Shown here one piece after another: positions 657 through 19,759 of a stretch of DNA of 24,000 bases. Within the stretch, counting starts at the first letter, position 1. Each line of letters starts with the position of its first letter. Source of the stretch: Pseudomonadales bacterium (lineage in GTDB: Bacteria; Pseudomonadota; Gammaproteobacteria; Pseudomonadales; Azotimanducaceae); the NCBI GenBank assembly GCA_028280225.1, contig JANQMF010000025.1, forward strand, positions 1 to 24,000, given 5' to 3'. The translations under genes were made by a program, and so were the position numbers. The notes beneath the pieces were generated by a model. It had not been told where the DNA came from. It made no database searches and was given only the letters and a program-made list of their open reading frames with translations.

Positions 657-1160
657 TTAGAAGCCTGCCTGAATCACTTTTCGAATTCGAGCCCGCACCG
701 AGGCTGGTTCATCCCGCAAGCCCATGCGGAAGAATGCCCGGGCTTCATCCTGATATTCCGGGAAGCGCCGGGCCAATTCGTAAAAACCGCTGTAGGACCA
801 GGCTCTGACAAATTTAACCTCGTGGGTCAGGCTGTCTCTGACAAATTTCTCCACGGTCGCCTTTTCGGTTGGGGGTATGGGTAAATAGGCCATACACTGC
901 AACAGGTGAAGTTTGCTTTGCCAATGGGTCAGCAGCGGGCAGAGCCGGTAAATCTCCGTAATTCCGTCCGCTTCAATTTGACCGGCATGCTCCAGATAGT
1001 GTTTTAACAGCCAGGTTGCCCCCTTCTGCGTAGCGTCCAGAGCAGCCAAACGAATAATTTCCCGGCTAAAATTGTTGTTTGCGCGCTCAGATTGGTAAAT
1101 AGCCTCGATGTCGTCAGCGGATTTTCCATCCCACCTGCGTAGCCTGTCTTCCAAATTCAC
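657..1160 (-). CDS. Hypothetical all-alpha protein (possibly HEAT/ARM-like, DNA-alkylation-repair-like superfamily; function not supported)
   Basis: 167-aa ORF with a GTG start, 21 nt downstream of the DUF3604 stop on the same strand. Its composition is helix-rich (…ATWLLKHYLEH…KFVRAWSYSGFYELARRFPE…). Only a vague resemblance to AlkD-like HEAT proteins, recalled from memory. Confidence 0.55.
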   Translation of the reverse strand: MNLEDRLRRWDGKSADDIEAIYQSERANNNFSREIIRLAALDATQKGATWLLKHYLEHAGQIEADGITEIYRLCPLLTHWQSKLHLLQCMAYLPIPPTEKATVEKFVRDSLTHEVKFVRAWSYSGFYELARRFPEYQDEARAFFRMGLRDEPASVRARIRKVIQAGF

Positions 1161-1181
1161 GGTCTGTCCCGCCCGGTCGGG

Positions 1182-3080
1182 CTAAGGTACAAACCAAATG
1201 GGTGATGACCAAACCCGCTCTTGAATGGTGGCTGGCAACCCCTCACGAGGCGCTACACCCGCACGTACCGCATCCCAGGTGGACCAGCGGCAGGTTGGAT
1301 TTTCCAATCCGCGTACGTAGTAAAAAGCCCTTTGTTCCGGGTTAAAGCCCGGGTCGGTCCAGATGGTTTCCAACTCTGCCGCACCGGACCCTCCTGAAAT
1401 TTCACAGGTTGTGATGTCCACCGTGGCGCCATTGTCCGGGCAGCGGTGGGTCTGCGCATCCACACTCAGTCCATCAGCACAGGCCACGTCAAAAACCTGC
1501 TCACGGGGTGAGCCGTCCTCTATCCAACCCTTAACAATCTGCAATCTTTGCAGCGGTGCTGAACGGGCATCTTTAGCCGCCCAGACAAAAAACTCAGGGC
1601 CGGCATCCCCATCAGCCACTAAGTCACCGCCCATGGGAACCGCTGACGCATAGAATCTGGATATCCGGTCTTCAGCATCAACCAGCTTGGTCAAACCATA
1701 ACCGGCAAAAAAGCGCACCTGCATTCGGGGTCCGGAAGTGGCAAAGGTTTCCTTGCGGCGAAACGCCGCGTAGATGGAACCGCGGGTATTCTCTTCGGCC
1801 CAGACACCCGCCAGGCCCGATGCACCCCAGGTGGGGAACGAGGCGATGTCACCCCCCATATACCGGCTGCCGTCAGGCCCCGGTTCCGGCAATGGCACCG
1901 AGCCACGCATCACCGGCGTGCCATCGATAATGCCAGCCTTGCTCCAGTAATTGTCCTCATCAAATCCACCAGCCCCCACGTGGGTATCCGATGAGCCGAT
2001 CAAACCAAATTGATAAGGATTAAAACCTTCGTTGGCGGCAAACCGCAGACCATTCAGATACGCTTCCCGGACATAGCTGCCCTGGGGTTTGCTGGGTTCC
2101 GTGGTGGCAACCTTCACCTCCATCAGCTCGAAGTTTGCCCACTCATCGTTCGGCGACAACAGCGGATGAGTCTCGGATGTACCCTTGACCTGGGTAATTT
2201 CCACCAGCGGTTCGTTACGCATCCGCTGCTCGGCATAAGCCGGCGAAAACCGGGTGCCATCAGTTTCCGCCAGCGCAAACATCAGGCCATTCGAACCGTT
2301 GGAGTTGTGCGGTATGGCCAGACCCTCTATGCCCGCAGCGCGTTGTTGATCCAACCAATCCCATAAGTCTTCCGGATTGGCGGAATCCATGCTGGAAAAC
2401 GGCAGATCCGGAGGCGTATCCCGAAAAACAACGTTTCTGTGCAGATTTTCCCGTTCAGCGCCCGCAGCGGTATATTCATACGCCACAAAGGTGGTGAACC
2501 TACCCGGATTGTTGTGGCGCCGGGCCGCCGCCACCGTGGTTTCCCATGCAGAGCGGACAACCGCCGGATCGAGCAGATCATCGGGCTTATCCAACTGTTT
2601 TCTTAAATACGGAAACATGGCCTGAAACGCTTCCACCCGCTCCTGGGAATTCGAGGCTTCACGAATCGCCACCGCAATGGGATGTTTGCCAACGGTGGTC
2701 TCAGGATTGTCCATGGCCGGCAGCATACCCATATACATGGCGTGATCGGTTACACCCAGAAAATCCAAGGGTTGAGCTAATTGCATCTGAAAACCCGAAG
2801 GGTGCGCCAAGGCTGCACCCTTGGCATATTCATACGCAGAATCCGGTGTACTACGGGTACCGAATATAAAGGCATCAAACGACAACTGAGTATGAATGTG
2901 CAAATCACCAAACAATGCCCGCCTGCTCCCGGGGTCTATTGGCGCCTGCTGTACAGCAGCTGGCTGACCCACCTTTGCCGCCGCTTCTTTTGTGTTGTCA
3001 GCCCGGTTGTCTTCCTCTTGTCCGCAGCTCATCAGTCCAAGAATGATTAGAACCAGGCCCAACTTTGTGCAAGTTTTCAT
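1182..3080 (-). CDS. DUF3604 domain protein (PHP-like metal-dependent hydrolase fold), predicted lipoprotein
   Basis: The N-terminal FGDLHIHTQLSFDAF motif, the approximately 630-aa size and the later ...GSSDTHVG... segment are typical of DUF3604. The start is taken at ATG 3078-3080, giving MKTCTKLGLVLIILGLMSC with a lipobox-like LMSC. The ORF-track start at 3125 is a TTG. Confidence 0.8.
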   Translation of the reverse strand: MKTCTKLGLVLIILGLMSCGQEEDNRADNTKEAAAKVGQPAAVQQAPIDPGSRRALFGDLHIHTQLSFDAFIFGTRSTPDSAYEYAKGAALAHPSGFQMQLAQPLDFLGVTDHAMYMGMLPAMDNPETTVGKHPIAVAIREASNSQERVEAFQAMFPYLRKQLDKPDDLLDPAVVRSAWETTVAAARRHNNPGRFTTFVAYEYTAAGAERENLHRNVVFRDTPPDLPFSSMDSANPEDLWDWLDQQRAAGIEGLAIPHNSNGSNGLMFALAETDGTRFSPAYAEQRMRNEPLVEITQVKGTSETHPLLSPNDEWANFELMEVKVATTEPSKPQGSYVREAYLNGLRFAANEGFNPYQFGLIGSSDTHVGAGGFDEDNYWSKAGIIDGTPVMRGSVPLPEPGPDGSRYMGGDIASFPTWGASGLAGVWAEENTRGSIYAAFRRKETFATSGPRMQVRFFAGYGLTKLVDAEDRISRFYASAVPMGGDLVADGDAGPEFFVWAAKDARSAPLQRLQIVKGWIEDGSPREQVFDVACADGLSVDAQTHRCPDNGATVDITTCEISGGSGAAELETIWTDPGFNPEQRAFYYVRGLENPTCRWSTWDAVRAGVAPREGLPATIQERVWSSPIWFVP

Positions 3081-3187
3081 GCTCCATCCCCATTGACAAT
3101 ATGCCGCCTGCCTATCTTCACCCAAAGTTGCCTGAGGATCACCGACTAATTGCAGCCCACATTCGGAGCGCGTTTGAGCGAACTAAT

Positions 3188-3206
3188 GGTAATGATTATC
3201 ATTTGC
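3188..3206. promoter_or_regulatory. Fur box in the divergent DUF3604 / secreted-protein intergenic region
   Basis: GGTAATGATTATCATTTGC matches 15 of 19 positions of the GATAATGATAATCATTATC consensus. It sits in the spacer between a possible -35 TGGTAA (3187-3192) and -10 TAAAAT (3210-3215) for the + gene. Confidence 0.7.
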
Positions 3207-3245: not shown

Positions 3246-4379
3246 ATGAACTTGCCCGCCGCCACCGCCATTGCTGTCCTTTTCACCCTATTGTCCACTC
3301 CGGCACGGGCTGAAGCATCCGCTGATGCAACGCTGAAGGAACCATCCCGGCAATATACCTTTACCTGGCGCTTTCAACCCGAAAGCGAAATGGCGCCCAG
3401 AGGCGGCACCACCCAGGGTGCTGAAGTGACATTGGTTTCCGAACCTACCCCGGCCTGGCGCGCCCTTCAGGAGCCCGGTATCAGCCGAAAAGAAAAAGAC
3501 CGCCGGGCCATCCTGGCCATGGCGGGCCCCTACCGGGCTTCTTTTGACTTTATCGAAGCTGTTGGCCTGAATCCGGGTTATACCCCGCCCCGGCCATATC
3601 AATCCTGGGGCACAGAATATGTTTACGTGGTCGCAGACCAGCCGGACTTTATCAGCTTGCAACACATTCTCGTGATGTTCATGACCCAACCCGATGGCAG
3701 CCAATCCGAACCCATTGTGGTTAAACACTGGCGTCAGGACTGGCAATACGAACAACGCCGCTACTATGCTTATACCGGGCACAATCACTGGCGCGCTAAG
3801 AAAGTACCCCGGGGGCAACTGTCCGGCACCTGGGTGCAGAGTGTGTACCAGGTGGACGACTCTCCCAGATATGCTGCTTTCGGCCGTTGGGAGCATACAA
3901 AAAACTACTCCAGCTGGATCAGCAGCGAAACCTGGCGGCCCCTGCCCCGGCGGGAATTCAGTGTCCGCTCAGACTACGACACTCTGGTGGGCACTAATCG
4001 GCACACCATTACCCCCACGGGCTGGGTACACCTGGAAAACAACAAGAAAGTGGTGCTATCACGGGCCGAAAACCCGGAACCTCTGGAGGTGTTGTCTGTA
4101 GAAGTGGGACTGAACCGTTACGAACAAATTACCCAACACGACTGGAGCGCCGGGGATAATTACTGGGCGCACACCGGTGCATTCTGGGCCAACGTAAGAA
4201 ATCAGTGGGCACAACTGCTGCGCGAAGGTCGTGGGGTAAAATTGCACACCCGGACAGGAGAAAAGTCTCTATTTGCGGAAATGTTCTCGCTTGCCAGCAC
4301 CTATGCAGCAGACGCCTACGACGCCCAAGCCGCGACTGACGCTATTGCCCGCACGTTAAGGGATCACACTGCACCCTAG
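3246..4379 (+). CDS. Secreted protein of unknown function
   Basis: 377-aa ORF with a clear Sec signal peptide (MNLPAATAIAVLFTLLSTPARA/EA). It is Trp- and Tyr-rich (…VVKHWRQDWQYEQRRYYAY…WEHTKNYSSWISSETWRPLPRRE…). I do not recognise a family. Confidence 0.7.
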   Translation: MNLPAATAIAVLFTLLSTPARAEASADATLKEPSRQYTFTWRFQPESEMAPRGGTTQGAEVTLVSEPTPAWRALQEPGISRKEKDRRAILAMAGPYRASFDFIEAVGLNPGYTPPRPYQSWGTEYVYVVADQPDFISLQHILVMFMTQPDGSQSEPIVVKHWRQDWQYEQRRYYAYTGHNHWRAKKVPRGQLSGTWVQSVYQVDDSPRYAAFGRWEHTKNYSSWISSETWRPLPRREFSVRSDYDTLVGTNRHTITPTGWVHLENNKKVVLSRAENPEPLEVLSVEVGLNRYEQITQHDWSAGDNYWAHTGAFWANVRNQWAQLLREGRGVKLHTRTGEKSLFAEMFSLASTYAADAYDAQAATDAIARTLRDHTAP

Positions 4380-9698: not shown

Positions 9699-10019
9699 TC
9701 ATCCGTCTAAGCGGGTTAAATCAATGGGCCGTTCGGCGGTGGGAAGTTGCCGGGAGACCATGGCATCAGCCAGCCGGATTAAGATAGCCGCAGTGCGCTC
9801 GTGGCCTTCTGCGGCAATAATCCGATTCACCGCCATGTTCAACAGGGCATTATCGAATCTTGCCTGAATATTTGGGCTGACATCGAGGAACACCTTGGGC
9901 ATCACTGCTTCCAGCAGGCTCATGGCAGTTTTTGTATCTTTAACCTCCTGATCCAGGACGGTTCTGTCACCGGCTTTAACCAGATCTCTCGCTAGTGCTT
10001 CCACGCGTCGTATTCCCAA
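9699..10019 (-). CDS. Hypothetical small protein, first ORF of the heme-uptake operon
   Basis: 106-aa ORF with a TTG start as drawn. The internal GTG or ATG starts are also possible. It has no signal peptide and I recognise no family. It is retained because of its position and its stop/start overlap with the receptor ORF. Confidence 0.45.
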   Translation of the reverse strand: MGIRRVEALARDLVKAGDRTVLDQEVKDTKTAMSLLEAVMPKVFLDVSPNIQARFDNALLNMAVNRIIAAEGHERTAAILIRLADAMVSRQLPTAERPIDLTRLDG

Positions 10020-10053
10020 CCGTTAAACGAAGCGCTATTCGAACCTATTTTAA

Positions 10054-10080
10054 TTGCAAATGCAAATCGTTCTCATTAAT
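10054..10080. promoter_or_regulatory. Overlapping Fur boxes between the heme operon and the MFS gene
   Basis: GCAAATGCAAATCGTTCTC (10056-10074) matches 13 of 19 consensus positions. An overlapping GCAAATCGTTCTCATTAAT (10062-10080) matches 11 of 19. The site is an AT-rich patch in otherwise GC-rich DNA. It shares the GCAAAT…TTCTCATT flavour with the other boxes in this window. Confidence 0.6.
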
Positions 10081-10246
10081 ATTCGCGAAATGAATGCCGT
10101 GTCCAAGGCAAACTCAAGTACGTGAGTCACCCACAGCCCAGATCAACCCATGATGCAAGCGATGGATCAACAACAACCCCAGCACACCATGTTGGGTTGC
10201 GCCGGCCACCCAAATGGAGCTGCACCACATGCATAAGGGGCGGGTA

Positions 10247-11431
10247 ATGGCCGTGTTAGCACCCGGGCTTATTGCCTATTCCATGGGGCAAACAGTGCTA
10301 TTCGCCGTGGCCGGACCCGCTTTTCGGGAAATGGGGCTGCGTGAGTCTCAACTTGGGCTGATCATTTCCGCATCCGCTGTTGTATTTGTCTTTTCTTCCG
10401 CATTCTGGGGCAAAATTGCAGACCGCTGGGGCCGCCGTCCCTCCATCCTGTTTGGGCTGACCACCTATGGTTTAATCAGCCTGGCCTTTGCGGGGGTGAT
10501 GCAGCTTGGGCTGACCGCCCAGATGGCGGCAACAACCGCCTTTGTGTGGCTGCTGGTGTTGCGCCTGCTATACGCTGCCCTGGGGGCGGGTATTCAACCG
10601 GCATCCGTTGCGCTGATGGTGGACTTATCCGATGAAAACAACCGCTCTTCCGCAATTGCGGTTGTCGGCGCCGCCTTTGGCATCGGCATGGTTCTGGGCC
10701 CGGCTTCCGCTGCGGGATTGGTCAGCTTCGGCTTGTTGACACCCTTATACGCCATTGCCCTGTTTGGCATATTTGCCGCCATTCTGGCCGGTCTGTTTCT
10801 GCCATCGGATCAGATTCGTGAATCTGATGACGCGGAGGAAAGGGATATGGACAAGGGTCCTCTCCTGCCACTGATCGGCGCGGGCTTGTGTTTTTATGTG
10901 GCCATGTCGATCCTGCAACAGACCTTTGCCTTTAACCTGCAGGATGTGCTGGATACAAACAGCACCGATGCTGCCCAGCTGACCGGCTACTGCTTTATGG
11001 CCATTGCCATCGGCACCTTGGCGATGCAGGGGGGTGTCATTCAAGTGCTGAAGCCCGAACCGAAAACGCTGCTGTTTGTGGGGTTTCCCTTTGTTCTGGC
11101 CGGGATCATCCTGTATGCCCGGGCAGACGGTTTTGCCCTGATGCTCACCGCCGCAGTACTGATGGGTTGCGGTTTTGGCCTGACCACCCCCGGGCTGCTG
11201 TCCGCTGCCTCCTTACTCAGCGACAACACCCAACAAGGCAAGATTGCCGGCATTATGCAAGCGACCATGTCCGCCGGATATGTCATTGGTCCCCTCTGCG
11301 GCACCCTGCTGTACGAGGCAAACCGGCTTTTTGCCGCCGGCGCTGCTGTCGCCACCACCGCTATCGCCGGTATTCTGGTCTTGCTGTGGGCCCTCAAAAT
11401 AAGGCACCCGCAACCCGGACATTCCGCTTAA
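10247..11431 (+). CDS. MFS transporter (12-TM, DHA1/TCR-Tet-like)
   Basis: Hydrophobic 12-TM pattern with the MFS loop motif GKIADRWGRRPSILFG (the G-x3-D-R-x-G-R-R type between TM2 and TM3). The start is taken at ATG 10247, preceded by AAGGGG. The ORF-track start at 10214 is also an ATG. Confidence 0.85.
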   Translation: MAVLAPGLIAYSMGQTVLFAVAGPAFREMGLRESQLGLIISASAVVFVFSSAFWGKIADRWGRRPSILFGLTTYGLISLAFAGVMQLGLTAQMAATTAFVWLLVLRLLYAALGAGIQPASVALMVDLSDENNRSSAIAVVGAAFGIGMVLGPASAAGLVSFGLLTPLYAIALFGIFAAILAGLFLPSDQIRESDDAEERDMDKGPLLPLIGAGLCFYVAMSILQQTFAFNLQDVLDTNSTDAAQLTGYCFMAIAIGTLAMQGGVIQVLKPEPKTLLFVGFPFVLAGIILYARADGFALMLTAAVLMGCGFGLTTPGLLSAASLLSDNTQQGKIAGIMQATMSAGYVIGPLCGTLLYEANRLFAAGAAVATTAIAGILVLLWALKIRHPQPGHSA

Positions 11432-12093
11432 CCGGGCTTCAGGCCGTTCACTATGATATTCGCCTGACGCGCGTAACTCTGCTCAAAATCCGGCGGCAAC
11501 ATCTGGTTCAGCGCAGCCTCCAGATTAGGAAACTGTTCCAGCTCGTCTTCACTCAATTGCAGGACCTTATAGCCGTATTGGCCATTTTCCTCTTCCAGCC
11601 GCACAAGCTGTTCCTCCTTTTGCACAAAGGTAAAGACATGATCCAACACCAGGCCATAGGCCTGAAACGCGCCCAGGGGCGAAAAGCCATCGCGGATTAA
11701 CACCGCTAGAGAATATTCAACAATGGTGAACGCAGCAGGGGTTGTTGGGCCAATTTTTATGCCATAGGCGCTTGCACCCGGGGTGCGTTTCAGCGCAACT
11801 CTGAAGCTCTGTCCCAATTCCAGCAGATAACGATCCCAGGGCAGGCCGGCATCCGGCAGCGACACCCGGGCACAAAAAGTATCCATACACTCATCCAACA
11901 ACGCTTCCCGGGACGCTACATAGCGGTATAGCGCGGTGGTGGAGACGCCCAATTCTCTGGCCAAACCATGCATGGACAGATTGTCGACACCCATCCTCAG
12001 GGCAGCTTCGACTATTTTTTCTTTGTTGATCAGCGGTGGCCGCCCCCCAACCGAAGGCGGTTCACTTTGCAAAGCTCGTCGATGCCGTTTCAT
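11428..12093 (-). CDS. TetR/AcrR family transcriptional regulator
   Basis: The N-terminal HTH reads KEKIVEAALRMGVDNLSMHGLARELGVSTTALYRYVASREALLDE. It is divergent from the RND operon and convergent with the MFS gene. Confidence 0.9.
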   Translation of the reverse strand: MKRHRRALQSEPPSVGGRPPLINKEKIVEAALRMGVDNLSMHGLARELGVSTTALYRYVASREALLDECMDTFCARVSLPDAGLPWDRYLLELGQSFRVALKRTPGASAYGIKIGPTTPAAFTIVEYSLAVLIRDGFSPLGAFQAYGLVLDHVFTFVQKEEQLVRLEEENGQYGYKVLQLSEDELEQFPNLEAALNQMLPPDFEQSYARQANIIVNGLKPG

Positions 12094-12187
12094 ACCTGTG
12101 TCCTGAAACCATGTGTACTAGAGCAAGAGGCCAGGCCCGCAGCCGGGAGATCCATAATCATAACAATCTTTGGCTCCACGCTGCATT

Positions 12188-12206
12188 GATAATGATTCTC
12201 ATTCGT
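12188..12206. promoter_or_regulatory. Fur box overlapping the RND-operon promoter
   Basis: GATAATGATTCTCATTCGT matches 14 of 19 consensus positions, with the first 9 nt perfect. It lies inside a sigma70-like promoter: TTGATA (12186-12191), a 17-nt spacer, then TTTAAT (12209-12214). A weaker second site (12 of 19) containing ATAATCAT lies at 12147-12165. Confidence 0.7.
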
Positions 12207-12244
12207 TGTTTAATAATATTAACTAATCAAGTTGACGCCTCAAC

Positions 12245-14590
12245 ATGTCCATCGAATCAAGATCCATGCGCACAGCCCGCGTCATCATTCAACATCGCTG
12301 GTGGTATCTGTTACTCACAACCCTGTTGACCTTCCTCACGGCCAGTCAGCTTCCGCACCTAAAGATCGACAACTCCAACGAATCATTTTTTCAGACCGGC
12401 GATCCCACTAAGTTAAGGCTGGACCGGTTTAAAGAGACCTTTGGCAACGACGATTTTGTCTTTGTCCTGGTTGACGTGAACAACGCATTTGATCCGCAAA
12501 CTTTACGGGCACTCCAAGGGTTGGCCGAACGCCTGGATCGGGAAGTCCCACACTTGCTGGACCTGACCTGGATCGGCAATGTGGAATGGATAGAGGGGGT
12601 CCCCGGCGGCATTGTCATCGACGAGCTGATTCCCGACTTGAATTTACCGGCATCCGAACTGGGTGAGATTAGCGCCAGGGCATTGGCAGACCCCTTATAT
12701 CGCGACCGCCTGGTGTCCGCTGATGCCCGCACCGTAGGAATACTGTTGGAGTTCGAAAACTACCCGGAATTGGGTATTGATCCACGCAAAGAAAGCCCAC
12801 CGGTCATCCAGGCCATTGTTGACGACTTTAAGACTTTCGAAACCCATCTGGTGGGTGGCCCGATCATGGACTACGACATGGACAACCAGACCGCAGTGGA
12901 GGCACCCCGCTGGATGATGGGTGCGCTCCTGGGCATGTGTCTGGTACTTGCCTTTACCACCCGATCTGTTTTGGGTGTTCTGGTACCCGCCGCCACCGTG
13001 ATCCTCAGCGTCATCTGGACCATGGGTTTTGTCTCCATGCTTGGGTTCACGCTGAACCTGCTGGTTATCCTGGTACCTACCCTAATTCTGTGTGTGGGTA
13101 TTGGCGATACCATGCATGTGGTTGCGGAACTCCAGCAGCACGAGCGAACGGGATTAAGCCGCAAAAACGCCTTGATCGCTACCTTGGATTTAGTCACCCG
13201 GCCCATCATCCTCACCACGTTGACCACCGCCATAGGCTTTTTAGCCTTTGTCGCCACTGATCTGATCCCCTTACAACAATTGGGTGTCCAGGCGGCGCTG
13301 GGGGTGGTAATTGCCTTTGTTTTGACCTTCATTTTTGCCGTCCCCGTGCTGTCCTTCAGGACCGCGCGCTGGCGCAAGGCGGAAACGGCACCTAAGGAGG
13401 ATAAAAAGACGGACCTATTTGATCGTCTGCTGACCCGGACCGGCAACTTTGTCACCGCCAATCCGCTGTTGATCGGCGGCACATTTTTGGTTTTGACCGT
13501 CGTGGCCCTGGTTGGCATGTCCCGGCTGATTGTCGAAACCAATACCATCCAGGATCTGCCTAACGATAACCCGCTGCGCGTGGCGTTCGAATATGTAGAC
13601 AGCAAAATGGGCGGATCCATGTCCATCGAAATTGTTGTTGATACCCGGCAACCCGATGGCATTAAAAATATCGATTTATTGCGCCAGGTTGAGCGCCTGC
13701 AGACCTTCCTTGGACAACAACCCGAGGTTACCCAGACCTCCAGTGTATTGGATCAACTCAAACAGATGCACCGCGCGGTACATGAGAATAACCCGGCCGC
13801 TTACCAACTGCCCGACGGCAGCAACCAGGTTGCCGAATATCTGTTGCTGTACGAGAGTGGCGGGGGTAACCAACTGGACAGTTTTGTCAGCTTTACCTAC
13901 GACCAGATCAGGGTACAAGCCAGAACCAAGTCCATTGCGCTGCGTGATGTTGAACGCCTGCAACAGGCTATCAACAACTTTGTAGAGGCAGAATTTTCCG
14001 GCAACGTGAGCGTCTACGACACCGGCACCCTGAGTATGTTTGCACGGATTGCCGATTTGATCGCCAAGGGGCAGTTGCAAAGTTTCTCCCTGGCATTTGT
14101 TGCCATCGCCCTGGTGATGATTGTCACCCTGCGGTCAATTGCGCTGGGCGCTATTGCCATGATCCCAAACGTGCTGCCCGTGGTTTTTGCCCTGGGCGCC
14201 ATGGGCTGGTTCGGTGCTCAATTAAATATGATCGGGATGGTTCTGGCCCCCATGATCCTGGGGGTTGCGGTAGACGATACCGTCCATTTCTTTGTTCGCT
14301 ACCGGCGCTATTTTCACGAAACAGGAAACTACACACAGGCTTACCTCAAAACCCTGAGAACCGTTGGCCGACCACTGCTCTTTACCACCCTGGTGCTCAT
14401 TGTTGGCTTTAGCGGCTTTCTGCTATCAATTTTCGCCGGACCACGGAATTTTGCCTTGGCGTCCATGCTCGCCTTTTCTACCGCTTTGTTGGCGGAATTC
14501 TTACTGGTCCCCGTATTGTTGTCCTGGCTCAAACCCCTGGGCCGGGAAGAAGCAGCCAATACCGTCAACTCACCGCTGATTACCACCTGA
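12245..14590 (+). CDS. RND-superfamily transporter, MMPL/HpnN-like (COG1033-type, two 6-TM bundles)
   Basis: 781 aa. N-terminus …RVIIQHRWWYLLLTTLLTF… The architecture is duplicated, with two hydrophobic blocks each preceded by a large soluble loop. The motifs …ILCVGIGDTMHVV… and …ILGVAVDDTVHFF… are typical of the exporter family. An alternative start is ATG 12266. Confidence 0.85.
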   Translation: MSIESRSMRTARVIIQHRWWYLLLTTLLTFLTASQLPHLKIDNSNESFFQTGDPTKLRLDRFKETFGNDDFVFVLVDVNNAFDPQTLRALQGLAERLDREVPHLLDLTWIGNVEWIEGVPGGIVIDELIPDLNLPASELGEISARALADPLYRDRLVSADARTVGILLEFENYPELGIDPRKESPPVIQAIVDDFKTFETHLVGGPIMDYDMDNQTAVEAPRWMMGALLGMCLVLAFTTRSVLGVLVPAATVILSVIWTMGFVSMLGFTLNLLVILVPTLILCVGIGDTMHVVAELQQHERTGLSRKNALIATLDLVTRPIILTTLTTAIGFLAFVATDLIPLQQLGVQAALGVVIAFVLTFIFAVPVLSFRTARWRKAETAPKEDKKTDLFDRLLTRTGNFVTANPLLIGGTFLVLTVVALVGMSRLIVETNTIQDLPNDNPLRVAFEYVDSKMGGSMSIEIVVDTRQPDGIKNIDLLRQVERLQTFLGQQPEVTQTSSVLDQLKQMHRAVHENNPAAYQLPDGSNQVAEYLLLYESGGGNQLDSFVSFTYDQIRVQARTKSIALRDVERLQQAINNFVEAEFSGNVSVYDTGTLSMFARIADLIAKGQLQSFSLAFVAIALVMIVTLRSIALGAIAMIPNVLPVVFALGAMGWFGAQLNMIGMVLAPMILGVAVDDTVHFFVRYRRYFHETGNYTQAYLKTLRTVGRPLLFTTLVLIVGFSGFLLSIFAGPRNFALASMLAFSTALLAEFLLVPVLLSWLKPLGREEAANTVNSPLITT

Positions 14591-14605
14591 GCCTTGGAGG
14601 GCACC

Positions 14606-15379
14606 ATGCATATCCGCATTCTAATCTGCATAAGCACTTTGTTGCTGACCCATATCGCAAACGCCACGCAACTCAGCGGCAGGGAAGTTGCGTTAAAAAT
14701 GGATGCCATCGACACCTCTTCGGACGGCACCCGGGATGCCACCATGGTGATCCAGCGGGGTAACCAGCAGTTGGTCAGAAAGCTGGCCATTTTGAATAAG
14801 AAATTTGGTGAAGACGAGCGATCACTGATCCGTTTTGTGGCACCTGCGGATGTCCGCGATACGCAATACCTGTCCTGGACCTATGAGGATCCCCAGCAGG
14901 AGGATGATATGTGGGTCTTCTTCCCCTCGGACAATCTGGTTCGCCGCATCAGCGGTGGGGGCAAAAAGGGTTCCTTTATGCGCAGCGATTTTGCCAACGA
15001 AGATATTGAGAACCGCGCGGTTGACGACGATGTCCACACCTTTGTTGAGCTGTCTAAGCTGAACACCCGGGATGTCTATGTGATTGAATCAAAACCCATA
15101 GCCGCCAAGGCCAAGGATTCAAACTACCATCACCGTCGGTCCTGGGTGGATCAGGAGTATTGGATTCCGCTGCAGATTGAGTACTACGACACCAGGGGAC
15201 GGTTGATCAAACGGCTGTCTCAAGGGGACATCCAACACATTGATGGCATTTGGACCGCTACTAAACTGGTTATGGAAACACCGCGCAGAAAGTCCAAAAC
15301 ACTCATGCAGTACGACAATGTGCGCTTTAACGTTGGTCATGCCACCAGCCGTTTTGAGCAAAGTGCCTTAAAGCGTTAA
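14606..15379 (+). CDS. LolA-like outer-membrane lipoprotein-sorting/carrier family protein (periplasmic)
   Basis: Signal peptide MHIRILICISTLLLTHIANA. The body (…RKLAILNKKFGEDERSLIRFVAPADVRDTQYLSWTY…MWVFFPSDNLVRRISGGGKKGSFMRSDFANEDI…) matches my memory of the LolA_like family that accompanies COG1033 transporters. GGAGG lies 5 nt before the ATG. The ORF-track start at 14594 is a TTG. Confidence 0.65.
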   Translation: MHIRILICISTLLLTHIANATQLSGREVALKMDAIDTSSDGTRDATMVIQRGNQQLVRKLAILNKKFGEDERSLIRFVAPADVRDTQYLSWTYEDPQQEDDMWVFFPSDNLVRRISGGGKKGSFMRSDFANEDIENRAVDDDVHTFVELSKLNTRDVYVIESKPIAAKAKDSNYHHRRSWVDQEYWIPLQIEYYDTRGRLIKRLSQGDIQHIDGIWTATKLVMETPRRKSKTLMQYDNVRFNVGHATSRFEQSALKR

Positions 15380-15383
15380 ACCA

Positions 15384-16616
15384 ATGCCTTACCCCATCGT
15401 GGCGTATGTCCTCTTGTTGGTCTTGTGCCCAACCATTGCCGCGGGAGCGTCGACGGACTTATTTGACTTTGATCTTAACGCCGCCGCCCCAAGCCAGGTG
15501 GATGATCGCTGGCGTATCGCCGGATTCGCCGAATCCAGACTGCAATATACCCAATCCGGAGACTGGCTCTCGCGGCGCCACGCGGGTCAAATTGAAGTAC
15601 GCTACCAGCACAGGCAATGGCGCAGCTTTGTGGCCGGCCGGGTCCAGTACGACGGTCCCACACGATCCTACAGCACCCCCCTGCGCAGCGAGCTTGTGGA
15701 AGCCTACATTACCCATGCCGGTCAAGACCGGGATATCACCCTGGGTAAACAGCGGGTGGCATGGGGTACCGCGGATGGGGTCAGCACCATCGACCGGGTC
15801 AACGCCATCGACCTGCGCGACCCTGTCGGAAATGCACGCACCGCTTCGCGCAGACCGTCCTGGTTAGTCAAATGGCGCCAGAAAGTTGGGGCGGGTGATC
15901 TGGAAGCGGTTTGGTTGCCCCGGGGGCGGGACCGCAAACTCCCGGAGTTCGGCAGCCCCTGGGAGCCATCCAGTCTGCACACCTTGCGCGCCGGGGCAAA
16001 GTCCAATGGTACTGTACTTGATATCCGGGACTTTCACCGGCCCGAAGGCGGGCTGCGCTACACGGTTTACGGCCGGGGGGTGGACTGGGGCGTTGCACTG
16101 TTTGAAGGTTATACCGACGCACCCGTCATTTTGGCCGCAACACCGGATGGTCTACGCCTCTCCCCCGAGAAAATCCGCACCTGGAACGTAAATACCGCCT
16201 TTGCCTACGCCGGCAGTACTTTTCGTGCGGAAATCGCCTATACCCCACAACTTACCACCGCGGGCACGCGCAGTAAGCTGGTCCAGGCCGTGGTCGGCTG
16301 GGACCGAACCTTTTTTGCGAATCTATACATTAACGTACAACTGTTTGCTGACCGGTTTACCAGCATTGACAGAACCGATCAGGGCATCACCTTTGCCGTC
16401 ACTAACAAAACCTTGAACGATTCCGTCACGTACGGTACCCGCGGGCAGGTGACCAGTGGTGCACAATCTGCCGTTGAAGTTTTCGCCGATTACAACGTTA
16501 ACGATGCCTGGCTATTGTCTTTGCGCACCTTAAAGTTCTCAGGGCGTAGCGGCACCGCGCTTGATGACTTTGACAACAACGATCTTGTTGAGCTGACTGC
16601 CCGTTGGTCGTTTTAG
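15384..16616 (+). CDS. Predicted outer-membrane beta-barrel protein (DUF1302-like/porin-like)
   Basis: Signal peptide MPYPIVAYVLLLVLCPTIAAGA. Alternating beta-strand-like segments. …LVEAYITHAGQDRDITLGKQRVAWGTADG… resembles the DUF1302 motif. The C-terminus …LTARWSF ends in an aromatic residue, the usual OMP signature. It starts 5 nt after the upstream stop. Confidence 0.6.
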   Translation: MPYPIVAYVLLLVLCPTIAAGASTDLFDFDLNAAAPSQVDDRWRIAGFAESRLQYTQSGDWLSRRHAGQIEVRYQHRQWRSFVAGRVQYDGPTRSYSTPLRSELVEAYITHAGQDRDITLGKQRVAWGTADGVSTIDRVNAIDLRDPVGNARTASRRPSWLVKWRQKVGAGDLEAVWLPRGRDRKLPEFGSPWEPSSLHTLRAGAKSNGTVLDIRDFHRPEGGLRYTVYGRGVDWGVALFEGYTDAPVILAATPDGLRLSPEKIRTWNVNTAFAYAGSTFRAEIAYTPQLTTAGTRSKLVQAVVGWDRTFFANLYINVQLFADRFTSIDRTDQGITFAVTNKTLNDSVTYGTRGQVTSGAQSAVEVFADYNVNDAWLLSLRTLKFSGRSGTALDDFDNNDLVELTARWSF

Positions 16617-16641: not shown

Positions 16642-16755
16642 CTAAAGCACCAGCACCCAACTGAGGGCATAAAGGACCACGGTTAATCCCGCCGCGGCTA
16701 CCCAGCCGGCAATCACGGAGATGCGCACCAGACGTTGATGTGTTCTTTGATTCAT
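16642..16755 (-). CDS. Small single-pass membrane peptide (37 aa), translationally coupled to the upstream 160-aa ORF
   Basis: Not in the ORF track because it is under 60 aa. My translation is MNQRTHQRLVRISVIAGWVAAAGLTVVLYALSWVLVL*. The N-terminus is basic and is followed by one TM helix. Its ATG (16753-16755) shares the A with the upstream TGA (16755-16757), giving TGATG. Confidence 0.4.
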   Translation of the reverse strand: MNQRTHQRLVRISVIAGWVAAAGLTVVLYALSWVLVL

Positions 16756-17237
16756 CAGGTCTTAACCAGTGAAAGTGCGCGGATACCGGTACAGTGCAGA
16801 TCCACCGCCGCCAGTTGTTCAACATAGTCGCCTGCTGCCCGGCGGAAGGTAAAGTTAAGCCGGCCACCAATCATCCCGGACAATTCCACCTGGGCCTTGG
16901 CGTCCTGGCCCCGCTGTATGGCCTGCAGCACACGAACCAGGATATGTTCATCCCCGCTTAAGGTTTCGCTGTTACAAAAGTGTATACACACCGGCCGATA
17001 CGCTGCTGCGGATATCAACATCATGATTTCATCAATGAGCGGCAAGGCGGCCACACAGCCAATTTCGTGGTAGCGGCCGACCAGCAGCCGCACAACACAT
17101 TGTCGCTGCCGTGCGGCCCTTACCCAGGTCCTGACACTCCAGACAAACAACTCTGCCCCCGGAGATAGCGCAGACAACTTAATTTGCGGCGCCGAATTGC
17201 GACTGCATTCAAGTGGTTTGATGTCCTGATTATCCAA
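16755..17237 (-). CDS. Hypothetical Cys-rich cytoplasmic protein, Fur-box controlled
   Basis: 160-aa ORF with a TTG start preceded by AAGAGG and a 6-nt spacer. It has six Cys and no signal peptide or TM segment. I recognise no family. It lies directly downstream of the best promoter and Fur box in the window. Confidence 0.6.
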   Translation of the reverse strand: MDNQDIKPLECSRNSAPQIKLSALSPGAELFVWSVRTWVRAARQRQCVVRLLVGRYHEIGCVAALPLIDEIMMLISAAAYRPVCIHFCNSETLSGDEHILVRVLQAIQRGQDAKAQVELSGMIGGRLNFTFRRAAGDYVEQLAAVDLHCTGIRALSLVKT

Positions 17238-17276: not shown

Positions 17277-17305
17277 ATATTATTGCAAATGAGAATCATT
17301 TGCAA
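17277..17305 (-). promoter_or_regulatory. Sigma70-type promoter with embedded palindromic Fur box
   Basis: TTGCAAATGAGAATCATTTGCAA is a near-perfect palindrome; the core 19-mer is GCAAATGAGAATCATTTGC at 17285-17303. Read on the - strand it gives -35 TTGCAA (17305-17300), a 17-nt spacer, then -10 TAATAT (17282-17277). The Fur site therefore occupies the spacer. Confidence 0.75.
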
Positions 17306-17557: not shown

Positions 17558-19759
17558 ATGCCAAAACCAACCTCCCATCTTGCCAGCCTGTGGGTGATTT
17601 ATTGCCTGACGTTTACCCTGAGCCTTATCCCTGAATGTCATGCTCAGGCTTCGCCCCAGAGCGCCCCCATCGAGGAAATTGTCATCCGGGCACAAAAAAG
17701 AGACCAGACCTTGCAAGACGTTCCCCTCAGCCTGAGCCTGGTTGACGCGCAGCAACTGGACCAGGGTGGCGCCGCAAGCCTTCAGGATGTGGGTTATTGG
17801 CAACCCAATGTGCGCCTCAGTCCGCAAATCACCGTCTCCCACTACGCCAACTTTTACATCCGCGGCATGGGTTTAAATGGTTCCGTGGTATCTGATGAGC
17901 CGGCGGTGGGCGTTTTTGTAGACGATCTTTATCTGGGTTTTGGCGGTGGAGTGCTCACCGACTTTGTCGACGTGGACAGCGTGCAGATACTGCGGGGGCC
18001 CCAAGGCACCCTTTACGGCCACAGTACCACCGCCGGGGTGGTTAAGTTGACCCACCAACCTCCGGTTTTTCACCCGGGATTTACAGCCAAGGTTAAATTG
18101 GGTTCCGATAAATTCCGCTCCCTGGCTGCGACCATGACCAATCAGCTGGACCGCAATGGCCATTGGGCCGGCCGTTTGAGTGTTTTGACCAAGGAACAAG
18201 ACGGCGCCTACCGCAATATTCACCCCCTGGGCGAGGACATTGGCGCCGCCAGGCTGAAAGTTATCAAACCAAGCCTGCGCTGGCTTCCGAACGATAACTT
18301 TGAGTCTTTGCTGCGCCTGGAGGCGGGCAAATCCACCAGTACCGTGGGGCCTCGCTACGCCTTGCTGGAAGGCAGCAATAACAGGGTGGAACGCCTCTTT
18401 GACCTGCACCAAGTGCCACGGCCGGATGAAGGCACCCTGATGCTCAACAACACCCCTGATCTTCAGGGCAGGTGGGCTCAGGCGGTCTTAACCGTGGATG
18501 TAGGTTTAACCCTGGGTGAACTTAAATCCATCACCGGCTATCGCACCTATGATCAGGAAATTGCCGCTGACGCTGACGGTTCCCCGTTTACCGTTTTTGA
18601 GTTTTCTGACGACACCGAAATTAATCAGCATCAAGTCAGCCAGGAGTTTGTTTTCAATATGGATAACAGCTGGATGGCAATAACCACAGGCGCCTACTTT
18701 TTCAAGCAGCATATACACTATCGGGAACACCGGCTGATGGACACGAATACCGATAGTTATAACGAACAGTGGAGCCTTGGCGAACTGGACCACAGCAGCT
18801 GGTCCTTGTTTGCACACACGGAATGGGACATCACCCCCCGTCTGACTCTGGGATTGGGGGCGCGTTACAATACCGAAACAAAATCCGCAGACTATGCCCT
18901 GCGCGCCAGGCAACCTGACCCGCCCTGCGTGAATGGATTTGCATCATGTGTACCCACATTTTCGGATCGTCACACCTGGCGCAGCTGGGTGCCCAAGATC
19001 AGTCTGCAACGGTACTTAAATGACATGAGTCATCTTTTTGCCCAGGTCAGCCGCGGCTTTAGAAGTGGCGGCTTTAACATGCGCGCGGTGCTACCGTCTC
19101 CGGTTGGACCCTATAAGCCGGAACAGGTTACCGCTTATGAGGTGGGCTACAAGATGCACCTGGCCGACCATGGCGCGAATCTGAATATAGCGGCGTTCTA
19201 CAACGTCTACGATGACCTGCAAAAAACGGCCCTGGACAATGATGGTAATCAATCCATCTTGAATGCCGCGGCAGCCAATATCCGGGGTATCGAAATCACC
19301 GGCACGCTGCAGCCGACAACGTATCTCGCCTTAAACATCAGTGTTGGGCGCATGTGGGCAGGTTATAAGTCCTTTGCGGGTTTGGATGTTGACGGTGACG
19401 GGGTGCCGGATCCGGAACTGGCAAGGTCTTTAGACTTGCCGGACGTCCCCAGTTGGACTGCCGCCTTTCAAGCTGCCCTGACACACGACTTGGGATGGGC
19501 CATTCTCGATCTGAATCTGGACTACAGTTTTACCTCCGGCTTTATGACCAACGAAGTGAATACCGCTGAAGTTGACGGTTACTCACTGTTTAACGCAACC
19601 ATCGGGGTCACCTGGGGTGACCACTGGAGCGCACGCTTATACGGCCGCAACCTGCTGGATAAATTGCACTATATCAGCAGCTTCAAAACCTCTTGCTGCA
19701 CCGTCGGTGACCGAGGCCCTGTCCGGGAGTATGGTCTAAGTCTGCAATATGCGTTGTGA
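17558..19759 (+). CDS. TonB-dependent receptor (non-heme subfamily; substrate unknown)
   Basis: Signal peptide …LIPECHA/QA. The plug reads IEEIVIRAQKRDQTLQDVPLSLSLV…ILRGPQGTLYGHSTTAGVV, and the barrel contains …RGFRSGGFN… This is the same subfamily as the receptor at 20643-23096. Confidence 0.9.
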   Translation: MPKPTSHLASLWVIYCLTFTLSLIPECHAQASPQSAPIEEIVIRAQKRDQTLQDVPLSLSLVDAQQLDQGGAASLQDVGYWQPNVRLSPQITVSHYANFYIRGMGLNGSVVSDEPAVGVFVDDLYLGFGGGVLTDFVDVDSVQILRGPQGTLYGHSTTAGVVKLTHQPPVFHPGFTAKVKLGSDKFRSLAATMTNQLDRNGHWAGRLSVLTKEQDGAYRNIHPLGEDIGAARLKVIKPSLRWLPNDNFESLLRLEAGKSTSTVGPRYALLEGSNNRVERLFDLHQVPRPDEGTLMLNNTPDLQGRWAQAVLTVDVGLTLGELKSITGYRTYDQEIAADADGSPFTVFEFSDDTEINQHQVSQEFVFNMDNSWMAITTGAYFFKQHIHYREHRLMDTNTDSYNEQWSLGELDHSSWSLFAHTEWDITPRLTLGLGARYNTETKSADYALRARQPDPPCVNGFASCVPTFSDRHTWRSWVPKISLQRYLNDMSHLFAQVSRGFRSGGFNMRAVLPSPVGPYKPEQVTAYEVGYKMHLADHGANLNIAAFYNVYDDLQKTALDNDGNQSILNAAAANIRGIEITGTLQPTTYLALNISVGRMWAGYKSFAGLDVDGDGVPDPELARSLDLPDVPSWTAAFQAALTHDLGWAILDLNLDYSFTSGFMTNEVNTAEVDGYSLFNATIGVTWGDHWSARLYGRNLLDKLHYISSFKTSCCTVGDRGPVREYGLSLQYAL

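Follow-up and report, generated by a model that had tools for sequence, protein, structure and literature searches.

In a 24,000-nt stretch of DNA from an uncultured marine gammaproteobacterium (the window, in what follows), positions 12245–16616 form one operon that encodes an inner-membrane RND protein, a periplasmic LolA-fold carrier and an outer-membrane barrel. What would such a trio move, in which direction, and what would switch it on? The clearest indications come from its promoter, where positions 12186–12222 hold a predicted Fur box and a predicted operator for the product of a divergent TetR gene side by side. Given the conservation of both sites, the trio is probably a low-iron-induced transporter of a greasy molecule. 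As a whole, the locus is best explained as an outward envelope transporter that would be gated twice, by iron and by a TetR ligand, a reading to which we give a probability of about 0.6.

The layout of the locus had been described in a first-pass annotation as three tightly packed genes (stop at 14590 to ATG at 14606, and stop at 15379 to ATG at 15384) with a divergent TetR gene, an MFS gene convergent to the latter and neither an AcrA/HlyD-type adaptor nor a TolC-type gene. The junctions and both flanking orientations agree with the open reading frame (ORF) map (Table 1), and Pfam and NCBIfam annotation of the genes in the 24-kb window reveals no membrane-fusion adaptor and no TolC-family channel. 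A simple scan finds no convincing terminator after 16616, and an Rfam search of the window gave no match. The same annotation had taken the three products for a COG1033/MMPL-type RND protein, a LolA-like protein with a signal peptide, and a signal-peptide protein ending in RWSF that would be an outer-membrane barrel; these assignments are borne out by the evidence that follows, and the families named for confirmation with hidden Markov models (MMPL, sterol-sensing, LolA_like and DUF1302) are all among the Pfam matches.

First, the RND protein matches Pfam MMPL (PF03176; 4.3e-34) in two stretches, with 118.4 bits against a gathering cut-off of 20.5, as well as Sterol-sensing (1.7e-15) and Patched (1.9e-15), and its likeness to ACR_tran is just 1.1e-08. 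Its best NCBIfam model is TIGR00921 (HAE3; 6.9e-59), with a score of 199.6 bits that lies below the curated cut-off of 351.9, and the HpnN equivalogs fall far below theirs (TIGR03480, 140 versus 751.85, 7.7e-41; NF052374, 63.3 versus 1100). By sequence, the nearest solved relatives in the PDB are HpnN (6WU0, 2.1e-12; 5KHN, 1e-08) and MmpL5 (2e-06). Kyte–Doolittle peaks at residues 225–369, 408–426 and 616–759, with the first transmembrane segment under the threshold, are compatible with a 1+5/1+5 transmembrane layout and two periplasmic loops of ~190 residues each. The product is thus predicted to be a proton-driven inner-membrane protein of the HAE3/MMPL type.

Second, the product of the middle gene matches Pfam LolA_like (PF17131) over profile positions 2–184 of 184 (9.8e-57; 192 bits versus a cut-off of 30). 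DUF1329 also exceeds its cut-off (3.1e-13; 50.2 versus 23.1 bits), with partial coverage of the model, and PF17131 is by far the better match. Among solved structures, 4Z48 (1.6e-54), 9TP6 (LolA3 of Porphyromonas gingivalis; 5.5e-31) and 3BK5 (3.2e-26) match the protein, which begins with a Sec-type signal peptide, MHIRILICISTLLLTHIANA, without a lipobox. These features predict a soluble periplasmic LolA-like carrier of the PF17131, TP_0789-like or 'LolA3' type.

Third, the last protein of the operon matches Pfam DUF1302 (PF06980) at 1.5e-07, with 31.3 bits against a cut-off of 23.2, in a partial alignment that covers profile positions 65–429 of 541. It has a Sec-type signal peptide without a lipobox and the C terminus ...TARWSF. 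An AlphaFold2 model built from 34 homologs (predicted local distance difference test (pLDDT) score of 85.3; predicted template modelling score of 0.79) shows a barrel of ~20 strands. The top PDB matches of this model in Foldseek are the porins OmpF, OmpC and OmpU (E ~1e-11, probability 1.00, template modelling scores of 0.45–0.58); the barrel profile found no match among PDB sequences, and the fold search alone succeeded. On this model the protein is a porin-like outer-membrane barrel and a small relative of DUF1302.

Two side observations concern this barrel. Its residues 121–160 (window positions 15744–15863; GKQRVAWGTADGVSTIDRVNAIDLRDP...RRPSW) are the most conserved segment of the barrel family, with many invariant columns, and at the same time the sole long low-confidence loop of the AlphaFold2 model (pLDDT 43–45). 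This loop may serve to plug or narrow the barrel or to dock the carrier. Among longer barrel relatives (P0152, P0171, P0194 and P0092), three proteins have AMIN domains and one has TPR repeats at the N terminus; these look like periplasmic extensions of an outer-membrane protein. Fusions of a LolA-like protein to a barrel, sought among the long barrel relatives as Rosetta-stone evidence, were not found.

Is the operon under iron control? The string GATAATGATTCTCATTCGT at 12188–12206 matches the Fur consensus GATAATGATAATCATTATC at 14 of 19 positions on the forward strand and at 15 of 19 on the reverse strand. It also matches, at 15 of 19 positions, the perfect palindrome GCAAATGAGAATCATTTGC at 17285–17303, which served as the local consensus. 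The window holds four sites with at least 14 of 19 matches, none of them inside a gene, whereas Markov shuffles lead one to expect 0.13.

Comparison with relatives carries the case further. Orthologs were taken from GTDB species representatives scanned with an alignment of barrel homologs, and more came from metagenomes and contig look-ups; loci beyond the window are numbered L001–L124. The GTDB scan gave 14 orthologous loci with all three genes in the same order (identities of 46–52% for the barrel, 61–66% for the RND protein and 64–71% for the LolA-like protein), the metagenome scan added just two close orthologs, and the trio is syntenic in 18/18 orthologous loci. For 17 non-redundant loci of this clade, we counted sites with at least 14/19 matches to the local consensus within 220 nt upstream of the RND start. 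Fifteen have one, 32–153 nt 5′ of the start; the exceptions are L003, in which an MFS gene overlaps the RND start and the contig ends inside the MFS gene, and L086, which has diverged furthest and is richest in AT. Across nine aligned promoters, a block of ~45 nt stays conserved and co-linear between diverged flanks, and the relative L124 (81% identity) retains the box as TTGATAATGATTATCATTTGTTATTTAATGATATTA.

The 245 kb of clade loci contain 28 sites of this quality, of which 15 are the RND promoter sites and 13 lie elsewhere, a background of about one per 19 kb. Several of the 13 adjoin iron-uptake genes, including one upstream of a FecI-type sigma factor gene and one beside a periplasmic-binding-protein gene. 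As the motif also precedes the heme receptor operon, the TonB-dependent receptor gene and the FecI-type sigma factor gene, it can be taken as the Fur motif of these genomes. As a control, none of 39 distant trios has such a site in the 230 nt 5′ of the RND gene.

These figures bear directly on the alternative that the likeness to a Fur box arose by chance in an AT-rich promoter, and that the operon has nothing to do with iron and encodes a common solvent or drug efflux system under TetR control. That the window site matches at only 14–15 of 19 positions would suit this idea, as would the characterised relatives, which respond to monoterpenes or alkanes and not to iron. Chance would nonetheless have to account for a site retained in 15 of 17 promoters over so sparse a background and in 0 of 39 distant trios, for a promoter block that stays co-linear while its flanks diverge, and for the same motif at neighbouring iron-uptake genes; we consider it highly improbable. 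By comparative evidence, the predicted Fur box at 12188–12206 is real.

The first-pass annotation had reported this box as a 14/19 site in the operon promoter and had raised its conservation with the trio across relatives; both points hold, with the trio in 18/18 loci and the box in 15/17 clade promoters against 0/39 distant ones. A weaker second site that it placed upstream does not stand. At 12/19, that candidate is near chance level (24 such sites in the window versus ~11 expected); it is not conserved in ortholog promoters, whose intergenic regions are shorter and offer no equivalent, and we therefore regard it as unsupported. Its proposed promoter stands in part. The sequence and spacing are as claimed, with TTGATA at 12186–12191, TTTAAT at 12209–12214 and a 17-nt spacer, but a simple sigma-70 consensus scan of the window calls neither this pair, because TTTAAT lacks an A at position 2, nor the hexamers that align with those of the orthologs. 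The orthologs keep a conserved TTGCAA-17-TAACTT; the aligned hexamers in the window (TCTCAT/TAACTA) are weaker, so that TTGATA/TTTAAT may be the pair in use.

The second predicted gate is the TetR protein (Pfam TetR_N and TetR_C_1), whose closest solved relatives are TetR(D) (4.5e-11), followed by ActR and SimR, repressors that bind the compound exported by the adjacent pump. A TetR gene sits beside the trio in 14/18 loci. The type orthologous to that of the window (44–56% identity) is found in 9/18, divergently oriented in eight, and a second type is found in 4–5 more. The inverted repeat TTAAT-N3-ATTAA, searched with at most one mismatch, occurs as a single copy in the 24-kb window and nine times in the 245 kb, and seven of the nine matches fall in RND promoters where the locus has the orthologous TetR. 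It marks 6/9 such loci, two of them with tandem copies, and none of eight loci without the orthologous TetR; the remaining two matches are in L086, an AT-rich locus of 34% GC. The motif is absent upstream of the MFS gene of the window at the same stringency. TetR thus appears to be more than a flanking gene, with a predicted conserved operator of its own inside the operon promoter.

In a subclade of four loci, a different TetR (26–28% identical) is encoded co-directionally with the trio. Directly after the stop of this second-type TetR gene comes a 14-bp palindrome, GTATACGCGTATAC, with the Fur box and the RND gene following downstream. Among 121 loci it is present in those with the second TetR type only, and it is probably the operator of that repressor. 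With a different TetR, a different palindrome and the same Fur box, this subclade would have kept dual control despite a swap of the repressor.

Table 1. Positions of the operon, its predicted control sites and related features (window coordinates unless a locus is named)
Feature	Position	Strand	Basis or remark
RND transporter gene	12245–14590	+	ORF map; 781 aa
LolA-like gene	ORF 14594–15379, ATG at 14606	+	ORF map; 257 aa
Barrel gene	15384–16616	+	ORF map; 410 aa
TetR gene	11428–12093	-	ORF map; divergent from the RND gene
MFS gene	10214–11431	+	ORF map; convergent with TetR, 4-nt overlap
Putative sigma-70 promoter, TTGATA-17-TTTAAT	12186–12214	+	read from sequence
Fur box	12188–12206		overlaps the operon promoter (-35 hexamer and spacer)
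Candidate TetR operator, TTAATAATATTAA	12210–12222		inverted repeat TTAAT-N3-ATTAA; overlaps the -10 region
'Weaker second Fur site' of the first-pass annotation	12147–12174		12/19; unsupported
Fur-like site	3182–3206		between the DUF3604 and DUF6607 genes
Fur-like site	10056–10080		upstream of the heme-receptor operon and the MFS gene
Fur-like site	17285–17303		19/19 palindrome GCAAATGAGAATCATTTGC; upstream of the TonB-dependent receptor gene
Palindrome GTATACGCGTATAC	L007 2630–2643; L010 2645–2658; L011 2636–2649 (= L083 6678–6691); L013 2618–2631		candidate operator of the second TetR type

In which direction would the trio work? Here the distant relatives are informative. In one library clustered at 50% identity, matches to the barrel profile amount to 2,740 cluster representatives at E ≤ 1e-3 (782 at E ≤ 1e-10), and the order RND, LolA-like, barrel recurs in ~60 distant loci from Myxococcota and other 'Deltaproteobacteria', Bacteroidota, Spirochaetota (RND/LolA-like/barrel arrangements in L017, L038, L049 and L068), WOR-3, Eisenbacteria, Aminicenantes and other phyla. 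Carriers in the clade itself are almost all uncultured metagenome-assembled genomes, the only cultured one being Methylophaga frappieri, in which the LolA-like protein and the barrel have homologs of 56% and 45% identity, respectively.

One group of distant trios, in Desulfovibrionaceae from human-gut and other metagenomes (L087–L102, L121 and L122), resembles the window at 33–35% identity for the RND protein, 36–41% for the LolA-like protein and 29–33% for the barrel, and has a gene for an LCM-family methyltransferase downstream, as do four clade loci. It differs in its setting: upstream lie a type I polyketide synthase (PKS) of more than 3,100 residues, with methyltransferase, dehydratase and enoylreductase domains, and a type II thioesterase, and downstream, besides the methyltransferase, a phosphopantetheinyl transferase (PPTase). 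Because the RND gene directly follows the thioesterase gene, no Fur box stands upstream. A barrel cluster with 670 member sequences (P0045) indicates that this PKS-linked trio is common in gut samples; we know of no publication on it. Dedicated exporters of lipid-like polyketides typically sit among PKS, thioesterase and PPTase genes of this kind, and the presence of the trio there argues for export of a lipid-like product.

Export is also favoured by the exporter-type TetR and by the efflux phenotype of the related ameABCD genes of Castellaniella defragrans, deletion of which lowers monoterpene tolerance and raises Nile Red accumulation (PMC6394551). A mechanism would then run as follows. At low iron, Fur would leave its box and make transcription possible, and a hydrophobic ligand would also be needed to release TetR; this ligand would most likely be the cargo itself, as in the TetR/TetA, ActR/ActA and SimR/SimX pairs. 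The RND protein would pick up its cargo, amphiphilic or lipidic, from the inner membrane or the periplasm and pass it to the LolA-like carrier, which would shield its greasy part, and the barrel would insert or release the molecule at the outer membrane. A system that needs both low iron and a TetR ligand would suit the role of a valve for a compound that partitions into membranes and arises only while iron is being scavenged. Our guess for the cargo is such a compound, with heme or porphyrin overflow leading and the trio acting as a safety valve co-induced with heme uptake; we rank an amphiphilic siderophore second and an endogenous lipid for remodelling of the outer membrane third.

Several points weigh against this double-gated exporter. 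The case for control by Fur and TetR is built on conserved motifs, more than one pair of hexamers could form the promoter, and the genes outside the TetR–trio core differ from locus to locus. Adjacency to heme genes may be just the clustering of Fur-regulated genes in iron islands. In Pseudomonas putida, relatives of the trio matter for growth on the fatty esters Tween 20 and butyl stearate (bioRxiv 10.1101/2020.07.04.188060), a requirement that fits uptake as well as export.

The second-ranked cargo corresponds to a more specific proposal, also made in the first-pass annotation, of a dedicated exporter for an amphiphilic (acylated) siderophore. Mycobacterial MmpL4/5–MmpS4/5 are MMPL-type, iron-regulated systems that export lipophilic siderophores, and the operon would be their Gram-negative counterpart, with the MFS or RND protein extracting the siderophore from the inner membrane and the LolA-like protein shielding its acyl tail. 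Consistent with this are the conserved Fur box, the MMPL-type RND protein, the relatives inside a PKS biosynthetic cluster, and the TonB-dependent receptors, PepSY_TM proteins, FecIR and TonB–ExbBD that recur as neighbours. The MFS gene next door fits as well. Its product (MFS_1, 3e-47) is similar to the Tet(A) family and to NorA and would be a DHA1-type exporter; Fur-like boxes lie upstream at 10047–10085; and an ortholog (53% identity) stands directly upstream of the RND gene in L003, and the ortholog is also present in L124. In L003, the MFS gene (19–834) overlaps the RND gene (831–3155) by 4 nt on the same strand, which suggests translational coupling of MFS with the trio there. The MFS protein is a possible accessory of the trio, by a weak link.

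Siderophore exporters usually cluster with biosynthesis genes. As the first-pass annotation had observed, the window contains no siderophore biosynthesis genes, and we find none within 6–10 kb in ~20 orthologous loci either, whether for non-ribosomal peptide synthetases, for synthetases independent of them or of other kinds. An MmpS gene is likewise absent from the window and from ~20 related loci, and an additional TetR gate would be atypical of a siderophore exporter. The siderophore proposal thus gains no support from the wider comparison, and we consider it rather unlikely.

Iron genes do surround the core. TonB-dependent receptors, PepSY_TM proteins (three loci), FecI/FecR and TonB–ExbBD are frequent neighbours, and heme-uptake clusters adjoin the trio in two independent lineages, one comprising the window and L124 and the other L085 and L123 (with HemS/ChuX and HemP). 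A possible further case is a gene at the edge of L013 for a periplasmic binding protein 36% identical to that of the heme cluster in the window, and a SOUL heme-binding gene lies downstream in L081. Fur regulons, moreover, are dominated by uptake systems. One could accordingly suppose, by analogy with the passage of cholesterol from NPC2 to NPC1, that the trio takes up heme or a lipophilic ferri-chelate as a hydrophobic source of iron, independently of TonB, from a FadL-like barrel through the LolA-like ferry to a sterol-sensing RND protein that inserts it into the inner membrane. The matches of the RND protein to Sterol-sensing, Patched and NPC1-type regions would suit such a route, as would the growth requirement in P. 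putida and the induction of a related pair of genes in Thalassolituus oleivorans on the n-C28 alkane. Opposed to it are the outward direction of the bacterial RND systems characterised so far, the PKS context in Desulfovibrionaceae, the efflux indicated by Nile Red accumulation after ameABCD deletion, the similarity of TetR to exporter-coupled repressors, and the TonB-dependent heme receptors that these loci already encode. Import is, in our assessment, very unlikely; if true, it would represent a third kind of Gram-negative iron acquisition and the first inward-acting bacterial RND system.

The third-ranked cargo leads to a further alternative, in which the trio would export an endogenous, possibly methyl-esterified lipid and so remodel the outer membrane or form vesicles under iron starvation. 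HAE3 relatives such as HpnN move hopanoid lipids, and export of a cell-wall component was proposed by Price et al. for a related four-gene cluster (bioRxiv 10.1101/072470). The LCM-family methyltransferase gene also fits: it lies directly 3′ of the barrel gene in four clade loci (L004, L009, L081 at 11306–12115 and L084 at 11248–12066) and recurs in the PKS clusters, and L082 has a fatty-acid hydroxylase gene near the module. The window itself, however, lacks the LCM gene; genes for lipid biosynthesis do not regularly accompany the trio; and induction by a TetR ligand is more typical of the efflux of xenobiotics or products than of housekeeping lipid transport. We regard this alternative as distinctly unlikely, and the double-gated exporter of a greasy molecule as the better account.

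Further features of the neighbourhood were noted along the way. In five loci (L001, L004, L008, L081 and L085/L123), TetR appears to share an operon with a Glyoxalase_3 (VOC) gene, which, like the LCM methyltransferase gene, is absent from the window. AhpC/peroxiredoxin genes occur near the module in L081 (12320–14565, with AhpF), L123 (17308–17835) and L124 (4989–5552); as a plain count of three loci, this recurrence would fit a link to oxidative or heme stress. Within the window, overlapping Fur-like boxes of up to 16/19 separate the DUF3604 gene (1182–3125, reverse strand) from the DUF6607 gene (3246–4379, forward strand), both of which appear to belong to the Fur regulon here. The perfect palindrome lies between a 160-residue ORF with no Pfam match (16755–17237, reverse strand) and the TonB-dependent receptor gene (17558–19759, forward strand). 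A 106-residue ORF (9699–10019) that falls in no recognised family leads the heme receptor/hmuTUV operon and has a 43%-identical homolog in L005; the overlapping Fur-like boxes at 10047–10085 separate it from the MFS gene.

The module is widespread, from Gammaproteobacteria to Bacteroidota, Spirochaetota and gut Desulfovibrionaceae. The clade described here would offer a regulatory handle on this large and functionally dark transporter family, as low iron and one small-molecule TetR ligand could be used to find the cargo. Should this molecule prove to be connected with iron scavenging, the trio would add a new envelope step to the iron physiology of abundant uncultured marine heterotrophs.

How does the locus compare with known systems? 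An RND protein that works without adaptor and TolC and uses a LolA-fold protein and a DUF1302 barrel has already been described. AmeABCD of C. defragrans comprises a DUF1302 outer-membrane protein, a DUF1329 protein of the LolA superfamily, a COG4447 propeller and an HAE3 RND protein (PMC6394551), and genes of these four families show cofitness in Shewanella, Kangiella and Pseudomonas (bioRxiv 10.1101/072470). In AmeABCD and this cofitness cluster (Sama_1588–1591; in P. putida, PP_0765/0766 with PP_2018/2019), as in the window, the RND protein is of the HAE3 type, the periplasmic partner belongs to the LolA superfamily and the outer-membrane partner to DUF1302, adaptor and TolC are lacking, and the substrates are hydrophobic (for the window, by prediction). 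The two systems differ from the window in several respects. AmeABCD has four genes and the window three, the missing one being that for the COG4447 BNR/Ycf48-like beta-propeller (AmeC), which is found neither in the window nor among the conserved neighbours in 18 clade loci. The AmeB carrier is of the DUF1329 type with ~450 residues, whereas that of the window is best matched by PF17131 and has 257; AmeABCD-type barrels have ~600 residues and the window barrel 410. The order in the window is RND-first, unlike in the earlier systems, and those are controlled by substrate or by a LuxR-type regulator, whereas the window has Fur and TetR motifs.

A further comparison is with the Thalassolituus pair, in which TOL_3187, an MMPL protein fused to a LolA-like domain, is followed by the porin TOL_3188, both induced on the n-C28 alkane (PMC6304351). 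Going by its description, the three modules are the same and in the same order as in the window. No iron link is reported for this pair, and its RND and LolA-like modules are fused where the window keeps them separate; the fusion speaks for a physical partnership of the RND protein with the LolA-like domain.

Among individual components, the carrier is matched directly by P. gingivalis LolA3 (PGN0947, PDB 9TP6), which has a counterpart in Flavobacterium johnsoniae (Fjoh_0605). The P. gingivalis protein lacks the conserved Arg that canonical LolA, the lipoprotein chaperone of LolCDE–LolB, has in its beta2–beta3 loop, binds LolB weakly and does not pair with it (PMC13103446), and deletion of lolA3 in F. 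johnsoniae gives no gliding or type IX secretion phenotype (PMC11885536). Genomic partners of LolA3 are not discussed in these papers, whereas the carrier in the window has an RND protein and a barrel as partners; the locus thereby offers a specific hypothesis on what the orphan LolA3 proteins of Bacteroidota do. A side observation concerns Treponema pallidum. The Pfam label of PF17131 is now TP_0789-like, and TP0790 has been modelled as an AcrB ortholog that shares a MacA-like adaptor and TolC-like channels (PMC8407342). If the label refers to the gene beside TP0790, that pump may instead use a LolA-like carrier, and the same hypothesis would reach it; a literature search on TP0789 or PF17131 found nothing relevant.

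Other RND systems are more distant. HpnN, the hopanoid transporter of the HAE3 group and the nearest solved relative of the RND protein, is likewise a lipid mover without adaptor or TolC, yet it works without a dedicated carrier or barrel (PMC6394551), both of which are encoded alongside the RND gene in the window. MmpL4/5–MmpS4/5 share the MMPL-type RND protein, but are distant in sequence and belong to another envelope type, and the window has neither an MmpS partner nor linked siderophore biosynthesis genes. With the AcrAB–TolC (HAE1) type of pump and the TetR-family regulators of exporters (AcrR, TetR/TetA, ActR/ActA and SimR/SimX), the locus shares an RND core driven by the proton-motive force, a divergent TetR gene and a palindromic operator; in place of the adaptor and TolC channel of those pumps, it has a soluble carrier and a porin-like barrel.

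In our literature search, no paper connected a system of this kind with Fur or iron, in agreement with the first-pass annotation, which knew of no characterised Fur control of this trio. As the architecture has already been described, the locus is best seen as its three-component variant with a new, dual regulatory logic. What is new, relative to that architecture, is a set of three components without a propeller, a PF17131 carrier, a smaller barrel, and predicted control by both Fur and TetR.

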